Source: Pseudodesulfovibrio mercurii
GTDB lineage: Bacteria; Desulfobacterota; Desulfovibrionia; Desulfovibrionales; Desulfovibrionaceae
DNA length: 32,000 bases
Direction of reading: 5' to 3'
Assembly: GCF_000189295.2 (NCBI RefSeq)
Contig: NC_016803.1
Span: 2,700,001 to 2,732,000, forward strand
How positions within the stretch are numbered: the first letter of the stretch is position 1; the number at the start of each line of letters is the position of its first letter. The notes beneath the pieces were generated by a model that saw only the letters and a program-made list of their open reading frames with translations, was not told the origin of the DNA and did not search any database. Of this stretch, positions 26,988 through 32,000 are shown one piece after another. The position numbers were made by a program, and so were the translations under genes.

Positions 26988-27240
26988 GCGAAGGATGCCG
27001 CATGCCCGCTCCAATATGCTGAAATAAAAACAATATCAGAGGCGACGAACTGTGGGGGCGTGGGGCCTGGGCTCACACGGGCCGCGCCCTCCTCACAGGC
27101 GGTCCGTGTCTCGCGCCGGTCGGCCTTCACCAAGAAAAAACTTGCACGCTTTTCCGCCGCAAAACGGAGATGTTGTCGGCGCTCTCTTTAATATTAATTA
27201 ATACGGCATGTTGCAAAAGAATTTCTGCGGCTGCGCATGT

Positions 27241-27256
27241 TGGCACTTCATTTGAA
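27241..27256 (+). promoter_or_regulatory. sigma-54-like promoter candidate pointing into the non-coding spacer
   Basis: TGGCACTTCATTTGAA: perfect TGGCAC, correct spacing, -12 element TTGA instead of TTGC. An AT-rich tract (27186-27206) lies ~40 bp upstream. Confidence 0.3.
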
Positions 27257-27690
27257 AGAGGTGGATCGGGCCGGAGGAACCCCAGGCTTTATTGCCGAGA
27301 ATCACCTCCATGGGCGTGAAGCCGCCGGTGCGGTTTTCATCAATCCCGGATGGCCCACGGGTTCGCCGAGGCGGCCCCGTGACGGGATCGGCCTTGGGGC
27401 TTCGCGAAGCCCCGGACAGGTCGCCGCTGAAACGCGGGAGGAGTCAAGGCTCTGGCCGACGCCCGAAACAGCTCGCACCATTTCCATGGCCACACGTGGC
27501 GATTTCCGGCCCGCCGGATGCGCGGCTCGGGTTCGAGCCGCCGATATGAACCGGCGGCGGGCCAGGAAGGCATGGTGAAAACGGTGGGAGATGGCCGCCA
27601 TCGGACTGTCCGTGGCGGCCGACGCCTACACCGGAAGGCCTCGTGAAACGGCCTCCCGCATCGACGTGATGCGGGAGGCCTTGTGCGTCG
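27257..27690. other. hairpin-dense GC-rich non-coding spacer
   Basis: Perfect stems read directly: GGGGCTTCGCGAAGCCCC (27396-27413), GCGGCTCG-ggtt-CGAGCCGC (27522-41), GGCCGCCA-12 nt-TGGCGGCC (27593-27620) and GGCCTCCCGCATC-gacgt-GATGCGGGAGGCC (27650-80). ORFs here are Arg/Pro/Gly-rich, have lower GC3 than real genes, and lack an RBS. Confidence 0.5.
27650..27680 (-). terminator. 13-bp perfect hairpin downstream of the vWA gene (probable operon terminator, weak U-tract)
   Basis: 26 nt past the stop at 27706. On the minus strand the stem is followed by GTTTCAC. Confidence 0.5.
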
Positions 27691-27705
27691 GGCGGCCGGG
27701 ACGGC

Positions 27706-30700
27706 TCACCAGGCCAGGGCGAACTTCTCGACAAGCCGCCCGAACCGGGCCACGGCCTCGCCGTAGGGCAGGGTGCTGAGGTCGAAGTACTGCTTGAAGC
27801 TCGGCTCCTGGATGGGCTCCACGGCCACCTGGACGCAGTTGATGCCCCAACGGCTCTCCAACTCGTCCACCAGGCCGGTGAGGGAGGCCGGGCAGCATCC
27901 GTCGGTCGGCTGGCCGTCGCTGATCATGATGAGCAGCCGGTTCCTTTTTCGGCTCTGTTGGGCCAGGCGGGCCGCATAGTGGAGGGCCCCGCAATCGTTG
28001 TTGCCGCCGCCCGCCTGGAGCATGGCGATGGCGTGGCGTCGGAAGTCGCCGAGATCGTAGAGGGTTTCGTCGTCAAAGGCGTGGATGTGGCCGGTGATCC
28101 CCGGCAGGTCCTTCAGGGCTTCCGCGAGGAGCACGCCGAAGGAGCGCGCGAGTCCCATCCCCCTGCCGCACATGGAGCCGGACCGGTCGATGAGCAGCCC
28201 CACATAGGCGTCGGGATAGATGCGGACCTCGCGATTGATGAACAACCCGGTGCCGGGATGGAGCATGGACCGGCGCAGCCCCTGGGGATCGATCCGCTGG
28301 CCCCTGCGCGACTGCCTGTCCTCGACGACGCCGGTCCCGGCCCTTTCCATGAATGCCCTGAGGGGCCGGACGTACTGCCGCACCCTGCGCAGCTCGTTGT
28401 TCTGGGCGGCGGGATTCCGGTTCATGGGGACCACCCGGTCCAGCGGGGTGAAGCCGAGCCCGCCGGACAGGGGACGCGGCCTCGCCGGAGAGGTCTTCCG
28501 GAAATCGGGCGGCGCGGTGCGCCGGGGCAGGGAGCGGGACACGTCGCCCCGTTTCGCGCTGCCGTCGTCCTCCAGTATCTCCGGGAGATGGCCGCCCACC
28601 TCGTTCAGCCGCTTCAGGGTGGCGTCCAGCGCCGGGAGGATGCGGCGGAGCCGCCTGAGTATCTCGGCGATCTCGTTGTCCGTTGATGGTTCGAGTTCCA
28701 GGATCTCCCGTATCCTGATCGCCAGGTGGACCATCCGTGGGTGGCCGAGATTCCGGAACGTCGGCGGGATCTGGGCCAGGGCCCGGCGCACCGCGGCGTC
28801 CGCGGGCCGGTCCTCGACCGAGAACCCCGCGCGCAGGGCGAAGAAGAAGGCGAGCATCCTGCTTACGGTTCCGCCGAGCTGAACCTGCTCCCGGTGGGTC
28901 AGCCGGACCATCCGTCCCTCCAGGCGGCCTTCGAGCCTGCCGTCCTCGAAGTCCCGGCGCAACGAGTCCGGCGTCCGGTCCAGGGCCCGCGCCAGGTCGT
29001 CCAAGGGCACGGCGTTCCCGGGAAGCTCGGCAAAGACGTAGGTCAGGGTCCGGTCGAGGACCGCGCCGAAGGCGTCTCGTCTGCTCCGGAGGCGACGCTC
29101 CATCCGTTCGTCCATGAGGATGTCATACAGTTCTGTCACGCCCTGCCGCCGCGCCTGCCCCCTGGCGCTTCTGGCCCCTTTCGCGCCGATGTCGAAGACG
29201 TGATGTCCGATTTCGTGGAGGAGTATGCCTTTGACGACGGCCTCGCCCTGCGGGTGCCCGGAGGCTATGGGAAGGCTGCTCACCTCGATCCGCATGGGGC
29301 CGTCGGCCGAAGCCACGGTCCGGCCGATGCCGGTCCGGTACTGGGTTATTTCCGTTCCCCGGCCGGTCAATTCATAGCCGGTCCGGGCCGCCCACGCGTA
29401 GGCCCTGGAGAGGGCGGCCAGCCTGTCGGCGACCCAGACCGCCCTCCGAACGGGCGTCCAGTTCTCCATGAAGCCGGGCTGCCGGGGTTCCGTCAGCAGG
29501 AGGCGTTCCGCGTACTCCCGCACCTCCGGGGACGGATCGCCGAGGGCGTCGAGCAATTCGTTGGCGCACCGGGGGTCGTCCACGAACGAGAGCATGGTCA
29601 GGGCCATGGCGCGGACCTCTTCGCGGTCCTTTCTGGCGAACGCGATCAGGTGGGGAACGGCCTCGGGATCGTCCAGGATGGCGTAAAGGCAGCGCAGGGT
29701 GTCGCACCCGGCGAGACACATGCCCGGCAGGGGGCTCAACCGGGCGATCCGCTCACCGATCAGGGTGCTGTCGATATGCCTGATGGCGGCCATCCGCAGG
29801 TGCGAACCGGGCATCAGGTAGCGGGTGACAAGCGGGGCAAACTCGGCGTAATCCGTGGCCAGGTGATAGAGCAGGCGCAGTTCCAGCGTCTCCTCCATGC
29901 TGTCTTCGAGCCCCATGGTCAGCTTTTCCGAGAACAGGAGGGCCACGTCTATCAGGAGATGGGGGCACGTCACCTCCAGCACCGCCCAGAGGAAAAACCC
30001 GGTCTCTTCGTTGACCATGGCCCGCTCCTCGGCCCGGACGATCAGCTCCACCACCTTCCTTTCCGAAAAGTCGCGCATGAACCGGGCGAGCTCGGCGAAC
30101 AGTTTCGTCTCATCCTTGTCCAGCTTCCACAGGGGGGAGTCGAAAAGGGCGGTGTCGAACGGACCCGCGTATTCCGGAAGCAGGGCGAGGTTGAGAACGG
30201 CGTTGGCGTAGTCTATGGATTGGTCTTCGGACGCGCCGCCGTCGGGAGGGGGGCCTCCGGCGTTGCGCATCGCCTCCAACCGCCGGAGGGAAAGCCGCAC
30301 CGCGTCCTCCGGCGCTCTTCTCCTGAGCAGGTGCAGGGCCATGGAGGGGGTTCGTTCGATCTCCCGGCGCACGTCGGCCGAGATGCGGGGATTGGCCGCG
30401 CCGAACTCCCAGGCCGCGCCGAGAAACTCGACGAGTTCCTCCTGGTCCAGTTCGTCGTCGACCGCTTCGCCGGTGCGGGGCAATCCCTCATTCCAGCGGG
30501 CCATGGCCCGCAGCATGCCGCCCGCCGCTCCGGGGTCGTCCTTTGCCGCCCGCATGGCCAGCTCGAAGGAGACCTGGCCGCGTTCCGCAAGGTGTTCGAT
30601 CATCTCCCCGCCGACCGCGGGCGACCAGTCGAAGACCGTCCGCACCCGTTCCCAGTCCGAGGCGGGACACAGCGTCCCGCCCAGGCTCTCGACCAGTTCC

Positions 30701-30744
30701 TCCGCCTTGCGGCGGGCCATCCGTTCGGGGTTCACCGTGGCCAT
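27706..30744 (-). CDS. 1012-aa multidomain protein: N-terminal helical region with HEAT-like repeats, HExxH zincin motif, C-terminal vWA (MIDAS) domain
   Basis: Real part of track ORF 27706..31887. ATG 30744 lies 2 nt after the AAA+ stop, with GGAGGG in the AAA+ gene tail. HEAT-like repeats: DDPEAVPHLIAFARKDREEVRAMALTML..DDPRCANELLDALGDPSPEVREYAERLL (aa ~355-416). Zincin motif: GILLHEIGHHVF (aa 507-518, nt 29203-29217). MIDAS: LLIDRSGSM...AGGGNND...IMISDGQPTD (aa 850-948). Confidence 0.85.
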   Translation of the reverse strand: MATVNPERMARRKAEELVESLGGTLCPASDWERVRTVFDWSPAVGGEMIEHLAERGQVSFELAMRAAKDDPGAAGGMLRAMARWNEGLPRTGEAVDDELDQEELVEFLGAAWEFGAANPRISADVRREIERTPSMALHLLRRRAPEDAVRLSLRRLEAMRNAGGPPPDGGASEDQSIDYANAVLNLALLPEYAGPFDTALFDSPLWKLDKDETKLFAELARFMRDFSERKVVELIVRAEERAMVNEETGFFLWAVLEVTCPHLLIDVALLFSEKLTMGLEDSMEETLELRLLYHLATDYAEFAPLVTRYLMPGSHLRMAAIRHIDSTLIGERIARLSPLPGMCLAGCDTLRCLYAILDDPEAVPHLIAFARKDREEVRAMALTMLSFVDDPRCANELLDALGDPSPEVREYAERLLLTEPRQPGFMENWTPVRRAVWVADRLAALSRAYAWAARTGYELTGRGTEITQYRTGIGRTVASADGPMRIEVSSLPIASGHPQGEAVVKGILLHEIGHHVFDIGAKGARSARGQARRQGVTELYDILMDERMERRLRSRRDAFGAVLDRTLTYVFAELPGNAVPLDDLARALDRTPDSLRRDFEDGRLEGRLEGRMVRLTHREQVQLGGTVSRMLAFFFALRAGFSVEDRPADAAVRRALAQIPPTFRNLGHPRMVHLAIRIREILELEPSTDNEIAEILRRLRRILPALDATLKRLNEVGGHLPEILEDDGSAKRGDVSRSLPRRTAPPDFRKTSPARPRPLSGGLGFTPLDRVVPMNRNPAAQNNELRRVRQYVRPLRAFMERAGTGVVEDRQSRRGQRIDPQGLRRSMLHPGTGLFINREVRIYPDAYVGLLIDRSGSMCGRGMGLARSFGVLLAEALKDLPGITGHIHAFDDETLYDLGDFRRHAIAMLQAGGGNNDCGALHYAARLAQQSRKRNRLLIMISDGQPTDGCCPASLTGLVDELESRWGINCVQVAVEPIQEPSFKQYFDLSTLPYGEAVARFGRLVEKFALAW

Positions 30745-30746
30745 GG

Positions 30747-31835
30747 TCAACCCTCCAGCGTCCTGTTGGCCCTGAGCCAGACCATGCCGGCATCGCTGCC
30801 CGGGTCGTCCCAGCGCCCCTGATACCGCGCGCAGAACGAATCCTTCAGTATCTCGGGGAGCGGGTCCCCCGGAAACTCGTGCCGGTAGATCGGGTGGGAC
30901 AGGAGCAGGCACGCCTCCTGGGTGGCGCGCATGCTCAGGTCCAGGTCGAGGTCCCGGTCGGTGCGGATGGCCTCGGCGACCTTGACGACCCGGCGGATTT
31001 CCCGGAGCGGGACATCGGGATAGGTCCGGGAGAGGAGCCGGGCCTCGGCTTCGGGCGGCGGGTAGTCCACCTTGAGGGGCGCAAAACGGTCGAGTTGGGC
31101 CGGATCGACCGCCGTGGTCCCCGTGAACTGGGCGCCGTTGTTGATGGCCGCTATCCACTGCACGTTCTCGGGAATGGGGATGAACTCGCCGTTGACCGGG
31201 TTGAACATCTTGCGGGTTGCGTCCAGTGCGGACATGACCCCGTTGCGGGCCATTTCCCGGCAGCGGTTGAACTCGTCCAGGAAGATCAGGAAGCGTTCGT
31301 TGCTTTCCGCCGCCTCGGTGAGCGCCCTGAGAATGTCCGTCTCCACCCAGGTGAAGGTCCGCTTGCTTTGGTCCTCGGCCGGTTGCAGGCTGGCCAGGAA
31401 ATCCGTGGGGTCGTAGACCGCGCTGCAGTTGAAGAAGATGAAGCGGACGCCCAGGCTTTCCGCGACCTTGCGGGCGAGGACCGTCTTGCCCGATCCCTGG
31501 GGGCCGTCCAGCAGGATGCTCATGCGGTTTTCGAGCAGGACCTCCAGCTTGCGCAGGAGTGCTTCCGGGAAGAAGAAGTCGTCGCCGCCGAAGCGGGCCT
31601 CGCTGAAGTGGCGGACCTCGATGTAGCCCCGGCTGGAACGGGGCCTGCCCTTGATCCGGGTGACCCGGACCCGGCACGGACTGCCCGGAACGATCGCCTG
31701 GTCGTTGCTGAGTATCACCTTCGGCGCGCGCCTGTTGCCGATGTTTTTCGCCCTGAAGCGCCACGGGCCCTGTTTCGGGTTGAGGTGGAAGACCGTGGTG
31801 AATATGCCGGGCAGCCCGGCGTTGTCGTTTGTCAT
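30747..31835 (-). CDS. MoxR/AAA_5-class AAA+ ATPase with ~85-aa basic N-terminal extension
   Basis: LLDGPQGSGKT (Walker A), RFLIFLDEFNR (Walker B), WIAAINNG (sensor 1), VDPAQLDRF (Arg). GGAGA RBS before ATG 31835. Confidence 0.85.
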   Translation of the reverse strand: MTNDNAGLPGIFTTVFHLNPKQGPWRFRAKNIGNRRAPKVILSNDQAIVPGSPCRVRVTRIKGRPRSSRGYIEVRHFSEARFGGDDFFFPEALLRKLEVLLENRMSILLDGPQGSGKTVLARKVAESLGVRFIFFNCSAVYDPTDFLASLQPAEDQSKRTFTWVETDILRALTEAAESNERFLIFLDEFNRCREMARNGVMSALDATRKMFNPVNGEFIPIPENVQWIAAINNGAQFTGTTAVDPAQLDRFAPLKVDYPPPEAEARLLSRTYPDVPLREIRRVVKVAEAIRTDRDLDLDLSMRATQEACLLLSHPIYRHEFPGDPLPEILKDSFCARYQGRWDDPGSDAGMVWLRANRTLEG

Positions 31836-31875
31836 GCTCGTCTCCGATTGGTTGTGCGTGTTTTACGGCTCGCCG

Positions 31876-31891
31876 AGCAAAGTGCATTCCT
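31876..31891 (-). promoter_or_regulatory. sigma-54-like promoter candidate upstream of the AAA+/vWA operon
   Basis: Minus strand reads AGGAATGCACTTTGCT. It has GG-N10-GC spacing and a consensus TTTGCT -12 element, but a weak -24 element beyond the GG. It lies ~42 nt upstream of the ATG. An AT-rich tract (31921-31947) lies ~30-55 bp upstream. Confidence 0.35.
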
Positions 31892-32000
31892 TTTCCGCGA
31901 CGGCGAAACGATGATTCGCAACATACTGTATTTAATTGATCTATTCGCTTGCCGCCGGACGGTTTCCCGGAACGGACGCCGCCGGCTCCGAGGATGAAAG

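Follow-up and report, generated by a model that had tools for sequence, protein, structure and literature searches.

The 32,000-nucleotide stretch of the Pseudodesulfovibrio mercurii genome analysed here (NC_016803.1, positions 2,700,001 to 2,732,000; hereafter the window, with positions counted from its first letter) contains a pair of adjoining genes that encode an AAA_5 ATPase and a 1012-residue protein with a C-terminal von Willebrand factor A (vWA) domain, which we call the vWA protein. The C-terminal ~590 residues of the vWA protein have the exact layout of CobT, with an N-domain, a flexible linker and a vWA module bearing a MIDAS motif (metal ion-dependent adhesion site). In the best 150 of several hundred relatives the N-domain, located in the middle of the vWA protein, almost always retains a HExxH motif and an acidic motif downstream of it, and it is predicted to have the topology of a zincin. 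HEAT-like repeats precede this domain. We propose that the vWA protein serves as the adaptor in an AAA+/vWA machine for remodelling that is encoded by two genes and is of the same type as CobS-CobT, NorQ-NorD or midasin. Taken as a whole this is the best explanation that we can offer, and the chances of its being right appear to us evenly balanced. Its middle domain may act as a metal-dependent hydrolase, most likely a peptidase, either on a client protein or on its own linker, an assignment read from sequence in which our confidence is again middling.

Conservation of the C-terminal module

An initial annotation of the window had placed the gene at 27706-30744 and described its product as an unusual fusion of HEAT-like repeats, a HExxH zincin motif and a C-terminal MIDAS vWA domain. 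The coordinates are correct, with the minus strand coding, and every motif quoted is found at the residue stated, among them LLHEIGHHVF (residues 508-517) and LMDERME (residues 543-549). The three-part architecture is real as well, and it is conserved. An exhaustive phmmer search yielded 852 representatives at E <= 1e-3, of which 330 reached E <= 1e-30. The conserved C-terminal module of ~590 residues recurs in 330 or more clusters (50% identity), the majority from Myxococcota and Planctomycetota. All 150 of the matches listed align to residues ~358/440-1012 of the vWA protein; they vary at the N-terminus and measure between about 500 and 1875 residues in total. A word-indexed homologue search retrieved only the query protein itself, recorded with identical sequence for Pseudodesulfovibrio mercurii under the label ‘VWA containing CoxE family protein’. 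Started from the family alignment, the word-indexed search was swamped by unrelated HEAT proteins, and from an alignment of the zincin core it gave short fragments only.

Residue conservation was counted in a MAFFT alignment of the best 150 of the 852 phmmer matches, three rows of which are incomplete. H510 and E511 are each kept in 143 of the 150 sequences, G513 and H514 in 146 and H515 in 132. With the incomplete rows left out, HExGH is retained by 143 of 147 relatives (~97%). Counts for the downstream acidic motif are 143/150 for D545, 143/150 for E546, 145/150 for E549 and 147/150 for R550, and R553 likewise falls within 143-147. A lone HExxH in 1012 residues is not improbable by chance alone, but for 143 of 147 relatives to share the motif at identities of only 30-40% is conservation far beyond chance. 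The initial annotation had made conservation of HExxH among orthologues a test of its reading, and had pointed to a glutamate of LMDERME as a candidate third zinc ligand; both residues and motif have held up. D545, E549 and R550 are moreover the residues of this motif that do not vary between the vWA protein and the phage and IncC plasmid proteins described below, in the latter of which E546 is replaced by Cys. Since E549 is kept in all of these proteins, it is the best candidate for the third ligand.

In three family members, P0037, P0043 and P0063, the HE of HExxH and the acidic D-E-x-x-E motif have disappeared together, and the MIDAS is kept. Joint loss of both motifs is the pattern expected of one shared site. 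These proteins are probably inactive derivatives; the two that were scanned (P0037 and P0063) contain long HEAT arrays.

Predicted structure of the middle domain

We modelled the middle domain with AlphaFold2 (AF2), using residues 425-719 and an alignment of 60 sequences, and obtained a model with a predicted local distance difference test (pLDDT) score of 90.1 and a predicted template modelling (pTM) score of 0.86. A helix (residues 431-460) is followed by three strands (464-468, 474-477 and 484-488), the helix that carries HExxH (500-517), a further helix (524-533), the helix that carries E549 (537-555) and then more helices, with at least ten helices past the sheet. In the model, this order of elements is that of minimal gluzincins. 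E549 is located 35 residues after the second histidine of HExxH, a His-to-Glu spacing close to that of the M56 peptidases. The model also fits the description of the N-domain of CobT (CobT_N), which is built from one helix, a three-stranded sheet and eight helices, and which is reported to resemble peptidase M48C (bioRxiv 10.64898/2026.07.21.739949). In view of that work, the premise of the initial annotation that the vWA domain is the only well-defined domain of CobT is outdated.

Foldseek searches of BFVD with the middle domain returned phage proteins named ‘VWFA domain’ or ‘CobT’ (E 1e-4 to 1e-3, probability 1.0, TM score 0.4-0.5), and the matches fall in the non-vWA part of these proteins. 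Weaker matches are to entries named lethal factor (E 0.016), peptidase and SprT. The assignment of a zincin fold, a predicted one, rests on the modelled topology, on the motif, and on the chain of similarity that leads through CobT-like proteins to the statement in the preprint. The zincin fold that had been suggested for residues ~470-720 is borne out in part: the succession of helix, three strands, HExxH helix and Glu helix is modelled confidently, and there is no significant match to a solved zincin structure. A metal site of the HD type was considered and rejected because of the three-stranded sheet and the HE rather than HD motif. The GRLEGRLEGR stretch at residues 602-611, which had been pointed out as a micro-repeat, is trivial: relatives have G-x-L-P-G in the same variable loop, there is no repeat in the DNA, and its codons differ, which excludes a DNA duplication.

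The vWA module and the linker

Pfam models for VWA (24.0 bits, cut-off 23.8) and CobT_C (24.4 bits, cut-off 21) both exceed their cut-offs, confirming the C-terminal MIDAS vWA domain; across residues 800-980, the matches to VWA, CobT_C and VWA_CoxE are weak. Structurally, the closest matches in the Protein Data Bank (PDB) are the vWA domain of NorD in NorQD complexes (Foldseek, E 8e-9), followed by the MIDAS domains of Rea1/MDN1. A second AF2 model, of residues 350-1012 (29-sequence alignment; mean pLDDT 84.5), covers the whole module. The vWA module opens with a strand (770-773) and a long helix (778-801). A β-hairpin with a short tip helix is predicted directly before the MIDAS strand (strands 804-812 and 835-842, helix 820-828); it bears a conserved RRGxRxD motif, with G815 present in 150/150 and D819 in 148/150 sequences. 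The arrangement of strand, long helix and hairpin in front of the vWA core is also that of CobT_C. By analogy with the shaft of CobT and the finger of NorD, this hairpin may enter the pore of the ATPase. The MIDAS is complete: D853, S855 and S857 are present in all 150 sequences, and NND (915-917) and SDG (942-944) are near-invariant. Two cysteines of the vWA module are conserved as well, C950 in 147/150 and C970 in 136/150 sequences (residues 950-970; window positions 27835-27897, minus strand).

The Pro/Arg-rich stretch that the initial annotation had noticed before the vWA domain is real, with a pLDDT below 50 for residues 700-757, and the structured extension of the vWA domain begins near residue 770. 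In relatives, the otherwise variable linker is closed by a short motif, (I/L)-N-(L/V)-x(4-5)-F-x-x-(L/I), which stands before the first strand of the vWA module. This motif could be a docking or processing site.

The ATPase partner and conservation of the gene pair

The gene adjoining that of the vWA protein encodes an AAA_5 ATPase, in agreement with the initial annotation. Its Walker A (GPQGSGKT) and Walker B (FLDEF) motifs are both intact. The protein matches Pfam AAA_5 (1.1e-12) and PHROG 249, the phage CobS-type family (1.9e-21), and among PDB sequences the AAA modules of midasin (1.5e-25) and NorQ (7e-9). It begins with a basic extension (Table 1) that is kept in the family: in most loci the tblastn alignments reach back to residues 1-25.

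To describe the gene pairing we used a scan of one genome per species, which gave 79 loci. These are mostly from Myxococcota (Nannocystaceae, Sandaracinaceae, Kofleriaceae and Polyangiaceae, including the isolate Plesiocystis pacifica SIR-1) and Planctomycetota, the remainder being from Kiritimatiellae, Acidobacteriota and further phyla. Of the 79 loci as fetched, 69 also contain a gene for an ATPase homologue, mostly adjoining the vWA gene, and these homologues are 45-60% identical over their full length, N-terminal extension included. The two genes are on the same strand in all loci but one (L036), and their order differs between subfamilies: in that of the P. mercurii protein (L001-L008, L032, L049 and L065) the gene for the ATPase stands upstream of the vWA gene, whereas the larger Myxococcota/Planctomycetota subfamily has it downstream in nearly every locus. 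Clustering of the open reading frames (ORFs) in the 79 loci revealed no third conserved gene, only those for the ATPase and the vWA protein; apparent further conserved clusters are antisense shadow ORFs in high-GC DNA. ATPase matches without a vWA neighbour were found in Lactobacillus phage 3-521 and Microcystis phage Mel-JY01.

CobT-like relatives in phages and plasmids

Compact relatives of the vWA protein are encoded by phages and plasmids. In Bacteroides phage BS162P1, an AAA_5/CbbQ_C ATPase gene lies directly upstream of a gene for a 618-residue ‘hypothetical protein’ (WAX08856; L082:1044-4274) that contains HEGCH, EDERIER 25 residues later, an acidic linker and a vWA domain. This protein is collinear with the vWA protein in both domains (BLASTP 3e-4, and 1e-11 for the vWA domain), and hhalign aligns the core profile of the family to its N-domain with a probability of 81% (E 1.3e-5). 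The BS162P1 pair is a compact, HEAT-less version of the P. mercurii gene pair.

A protein of the IncC plasmid pSE12-01738-2 (L085:1824-3651; WP_327319124/WP_283807798) combines HEAAH...EDCRIER, a Gln/Gly/Asp-rich linker and a vWA domain. Aligned to the profile of the family, its N-domain has both motifs in matching positions (hhalign probability 50%, E 1.7e-4), and it passes the threshold of Pfam PF06213 (CobT), which provides an indirect sequence link between the vWA protein and CobT; searched directly, the N-domain of the vWA protein has no match to PF06213 at E <= 10. In this plasmid record, a frameshift splits the IncC gene into two coding sequences, which adjoin lambda-exonuclease-family and DUF3150 genes. 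More widely, 805 plasmid records encode VWA proteins that the vWA module matches; 785 of these plasmids are conjugative, and Enterobacterales are the main source. A CobT-like protein of a Caballeronia plasmid matches PF06213 and has no HExxH; next to it is a gene for an AAA family ATPase whose match to CobS is under the family cut-off. The core profile gave no hhalign signal against this HExxH-less N-domain.

Related gene pairs have been noticed before. For a MoxR-vWA pair of jumbo phages with an N-terminal metallopeptidase, a combined function of chaperone and peptidase was proposed (Iyer et al., 2021, PMC7824862); phage cobST genes have also been described (Liu et al., 2021, PMC8651126). The fusion is therefore less unusual than the initial annotation supposed: joining a zincin-like and a vWA domain is the CobT-type ground plan, with precedents in phages and on IncC plasmids, and the jumbo-phage pair was noted in 2021.

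Proposed mechanism and alternative explanations

In the mechanism that we propose, the HEAT array, the MIDAS or both would hold a client protein. By analogy with CobST and NorQD, the vWA shaft would be inserted in the pore of the hexameric ATPase, with the N-domain docked on the lid subdomain. ATP hydrolysis would then twist or pull the shaft and the linker, repositioning the tethered zincin domain, and the latter (H510-E511-x-x-H514 plus E549, contributed by the second helix past the HExxH helix) would cleave either the client or its own linker. Such a machine would be a metallopeptidase tethered to an adaptor and actuated by ATP, unlike proteases that work as a chamber. Zinc binding, catalysis, the existence of a client and the coupling to ATP are what we infer from the conserved residues and from the analogies. 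The reading as a hydrolase follows from the intact gluzincin signature, with its general-base glutamate, and from the rare members in which the two motifs were lost jointly. Peptidase activity is likely on the strength of these motifs.

Several observations weigh against this proposal. No peptidase family in Pfam, NCBIfam or PHROGs matches the middle domain: residues 441-720 match nothing in NCBIfam, PADLOC or PHROGs, nor in Pfam with the limit relaxed to E <= 10, and among 29 family members scanned no Pfam model covers the domain. In Foldseek searches of a PDB copy that predates the CobT structures, the middle domain has no significant zincin match; the best hit (E 0.29) is spurious, the matches being to long helices of the MerR type, and the M56 protein BlaR1 appears at E ~1.8. 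A zincin-core profile searched against PDB sequences found nothing relevant, only the HD-domain oxygenase TmpB (E 0.16). A few family members have YKIGH, YKLGH or LHLGH in place of the HExxH motif, and no client gene is conserved beside the pair in the 79 loci. In addition, the N-domains of CobT and NorD serve as docking or adaptor modules in machines that insert metals and do not cut proteins, and according to one published view the cobT genes of phages were ‘mistakenly annotated as a peptidase’.

Alternatively, the middle domain might deliver a metal. The ATPase-driven machine would pass the metal ion bound by the site HExGHH...D-E-x-x-E on to a metalloprotein client that the HEAT array holds, and no peptide bond would be cut. 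The characterised relatives do insert metals (non-haem iron by NorQD, cobalt by CobSTN), the closest solved vWA folds are those of NorD, the ATPase is of the same AAA_5 class, and a third histidine, H515, is present in 132/150 sequences beside the acidic cluster. In zincins, the glutamate of HExxH is the general base. E511 is as strongly kept as the histidines, and it would not be needed for metal binding alone; no gene for a metalloenzyme client and none of the cobN or nor type is conserved nearby, and the cobalt ions of CobSTN sit in CobN, not in CobT_N (bioRxiv 10.64898/2026.07.21.739949). We regard metal delivery as unlikely on this balance. An equally low probability attaches to a middle domain that merely anchors the adaptor to the ATPase lid and the client, HExxH...E being a structural metal site or a relic. 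That CobT_N contacts the small subdomain of CobS as well as CobN, through its first helices and the three-stranded sheet (bioRxiv 10.64898/2026.07.21.739949), and that the N-domain of NorD binds the small subdomain of NorQ (NorQD paper), are in line with such a role, as are the three family members without the motif and the HExxH-less Caballeronia protein, which still has an ATPase gene beside it. A relic, however, would not persist in ~97% of relatives with only 30-40% identity, drawn from several phyla, and in the homologues of phages and plasmids as well, and the joint loss of both motifs argues for one functional site.

A chance HExxH in a helical spacer between the HEAT repeats and the vWA domain would explain why databases are silent on the middle region, and by our estimate a lone motif is expected in a few percent of proteins of such size. 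The near-invariance of the motif across 147 relatives and the confident globular model (pLDDT 90, pTM 0.86) refute this explanation, and the structural and profile matches to CobT-like N-domains argue against it too; we consider it extremely improbable.

If the adaptor-tethered metallopeptidase is real, we may speculate further. The gene pair could represent a new type of ATP-dependent protease, in which a non-threading ring of the CobS/NorQ/midasin class actuates a tethered gluzincin through the vWA shaft and the linker, with substrates caught by the HEAT array and the MIDAS. The metal-insertion adaptors of the CobT type would then descend from AAA+-coupled peptidases, and the cobT-like genes of phages and IncC plasmids would encode peptidases. 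We advance this wider scheme only tentatively, as something that is possible and somewhat doubtful. MoxR/CobS-class AAA+ ATPases with vWA partners are widespread, and their mechanism is understood in few cases, mostly of metal insertion. In many cellular, phage and conjugative-plasmid proteins, the CobT-type N-domain keeps an apparently complete catalytic site. Were that site active, a protease would be controlled by a mechanical adaptor and not by a degradation chamber, and a function would be found for the puzzling genes that resemble cobT in phages and on IncC plasmids. The source of the window, P. mercurii ND132, has been isolated in culture and completely sequenced, and it is genetically tractable; the key residues are H510, E511, H514, E549 and D853.

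Gene structure, N-terminal region and operon setting

The features discussed are collected in Table 1. Read on the minus strand, the vWA gene runs from the ATG at 30744 to the stop codon at 27706 and encodes 1012 residues that end in ...FALAW*; the plus strand has no open translation at 27706-30744, as a stop codon lies inside. A GGAGG box is located 7 nt upstream of the ATG. The stop codon of the ATPase gene is at 30747-30749, only two bases from this ATG, and the vWA gene is translationally coupled to the upstream ATPase gene. A 1393-residue ORF (27706..31887) is spurious: in this 68% GC DNA the frame stays open for 381 codons beyond the true start, overlapping the ATPase gene, which accounts for the mechanical ORF call.

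Table 1. Features of the gene pair and its surroundings, in window positions
Feature	Residues	Position	Strand	Evidence
Gene for the HEAT / zincin-like / linker / vWA protein	1012 aa	27706..30744 (stop codon included)	minus	translation and database record
N-terminal region	1-354	29683..30744	minus	no detectable homologue, no Pfam match
PBS-lyase-type HEAT-like repeats	355-416	29497..29682	minus	Pfam, PDB matches, AF2
CobT_N-like domain with predicted zincin topology	425-700	28645..29472	minus	AF2, BFVD Foldseek, hhalign
HEIGH (HExxH motif), followed by H515	510-514	29203..29217	minus	conservation
DERMER, with E549 as candidate third metal ligand	545-550	29095..29112	minus	conservation
Flexible Pro/Arg-rich linker	701-769	28438..28644	minus	low pLDDT, poor conservation
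Linker-end motif, degenerate (LGFTPLD) in P. mercurii	~758-769	28438-28470	minus	alignment
CobT_C / NorD-type vWA module	770-1012	27709..28437	minus	Foldseek, Pfam, BLASTP
Predicted β-hairpin (‘shaft/finger’) with short tip helix	804-842	28219..28335	minus	AF2
MIDAS DxSxS = DRSGS (DRSGSM, 853-858)	853-857	28174..28188	minus	150/150 conservation
AAA_5 ATPase, CobS-NorQ-midasin class	362 aa	30747..31835	minus	Pfam, PHROG, PDB sequence matches
ATPase N-terminal extension (~95 aa), rich in basic residues, e.g. PCRVRVTRIKGRPRSSRGYIEVRH	1-95	31551-31835	minus	no Pfam match
Perfect 13-bp hairpin, 26 nt past the vWA-gene stop, followed by GUUUCAC		27650..27680	minus	folding vs shuffles
Sigma-54-dependent activator and PcfJ-like protein	588 aa and 413 aa	24091-27133	minus	downstream of operon

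The HEAT-like repeats reported in the initial annotation are genuine. Pfam HEAT_2 matches residues 357-414 with 29.9 bits (cut-off 27.7), PDB matches are of the alphaRep/PBS type, and the AF2 model shows helical pairs in this part. Relatives carry HEAT arrays at their N-terminus, with HEAT_2 E-values down to 7e-75. In P. mercurii, the array has shrunk to one recognisable HEAT unit, preceded by a 350-residue region with no detectable homologue; phmmer alignments to relatives begin at residues ~330-360 of the vWA protein, and in one case at residue 248. This N-terminal region may be helical.

The hairpin past the vWA gene folds with -34.7 kcal/mol (z = -4.4), and none of 200 shuffles folds equally well. 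It is the probable terminator of the operon, missed by a consensus terminator scan because its U-tract is short. Beyond it, a 570-bp gap separates the operon from genes for the sigma-54 activator, the PcfJ-like protein, enolase and folD; the PcfJ-like family is known from conjugative plasmids. Upstream of the ATPase gene there are small genes in divergent orientation. The coupled genes, the 3' hairpin and the divergent upstream neighbours together define a two-gene operon. No RNA families were detected in the window with Rfam, and no sigma-70 promoters in a promoter scan of 27000-32000. The GC content at third codon positions is 0.88-0.89 for the operon, slightly under the 0.94-0.96 of the neighbouring housekeeping genes. 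The nearest relatives of the vWA protein belong to other phyla, with identities of only ~40%, which suggests horizontal acquisition.

Comparison with known systems

Three groups of systems resemble the gene pair in part. The M48/M56 gluzincins (HtpX, Ste24, BlaR1/MecR1) share with the middle domain, as modelled, the backing helix, the three-stranded sheet, the HExxH helix and the Glu helix. Unlike them, the vWA protein has no match to their sequence families and no membrane anchor, and its structural match to BlaR1 is not significant. The DUF2201 proteins (a putative metallopeptidase, PF13203, with a VWA-like domain, PF09967), which are the small proteins alluded to in the initial annotation, also combine a HExxH domain with a vWA-like domain and have an AAA+ partner, MoxR, but their downstream motif is different and they have no HEAT array. 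Membership of DUF2201 is rejected, with no match for the whole protein at E <= 1, none for residues 441-720 at E <= 10, and none in the 29 family members. In VMAP ternary systems, vWA proteins often carry HEAT repeats and rarely a metallopeptidase (Kaur et al., 2020, PMC7159879). Like the family described here, these systems are enriched in bacteria with complex life styles, but they require a third gene, VMAP, and a MoxR-type ATPase. The absence of a conserved third gene from the 79 loci, and an ATPase of the CobS/NorQ/midasin AAA_5 type rather than bpMoxR or AAA_3, exclude the gene pair from this group. It does not qualify as a defence system either, as PADLOC returned only a weak HEAT match and weak generic ATPase matches.

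The NorD/NorQ and CbbO/CbbQ systems are closer, as pairs of a MoxR-class AAA+ ATPase and a vWA protein that share with our pair the logic of a pore finger and a flexible linker. NorD provides the best solved-structure match for the vWA module, and NorQ matches the ATPase. In NorQD, which inserts non-haem iron, the finger of NorD is located in the pore and the flexible linker is essential (NorQD paper). In contrast to these systems, the P. mercurii pair has no nor or cbb genes near it.

The closest layout is that of CobT (PF06213 + PF11775), in which an N-domain is connected by a disordered linker of ~90 residues to a vWA domain that is extended at its N-terminus and has a shaft and a MIDAS (bioRxiv 10.64898/2026.07.21.739949). 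The order of these parts is the same in the vWA protein, whose linker of about 60-70 residues has its analogues in the disordered linker of CobT and the functionally essential one of NorD. In both cases an AAA_5 ATPase gene adjoins, and CobT_C is the commonest Pfam match in the family (26 of 29 members). The vWA protein is nevertheless not a true cobaltochelatase CobT: the TIGR01651 equivalog model scores 19.5 bits, far under its cut-off of 759, and there are no cobN or B12 genes among its neighbours, which are those for the sigma-54 activator, the PcfJ-like protein, enolase and folD. It also differs in its N-terminal HEAT extension, which in the family measures 350 to more than 1000 residues, and in keeping HExxH...E, which the sole chelatase-like protein checked (Caballeronia pNK83) does not have. 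The preprint on CobT makes no mention of zinc in Brucella CobT_N.

The metallopeptidase-vWA proteins of phages and plasmids share even the motifs, HExxH...(L)ED-x-R-I-E-R, followed by linker and vWA domain in collinear arrangement. They are shorter (about 550-800 residues), lack the HEAT array, are ~25% identical to the vWA protein, and reside on mobile elements, whereas the family described here is encoded on chromosomes, for the most part those of Myxococcota and Planctomycetota. In the literature searched we found no biochemical test of peptidase activity for any of the phage and plasmid proteins. The pairing of zincin and vWA domains in the P. mercurii protein is therefore the CobT-type ground plan with its presumed active-site residues intact, not a new merger, and of the peptidase-scaffold combination seen in the initial annotation it is the scaffold that stands out. 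The HEAT array is the only family-specific addition to the CobT-type plan. In the literature we found no account of a HEAT-tagged cellular family; the zincin and vWA core had already been noticed, and what is new here is the HEAT-array extension, together with a cellular family that has the HExxH site.

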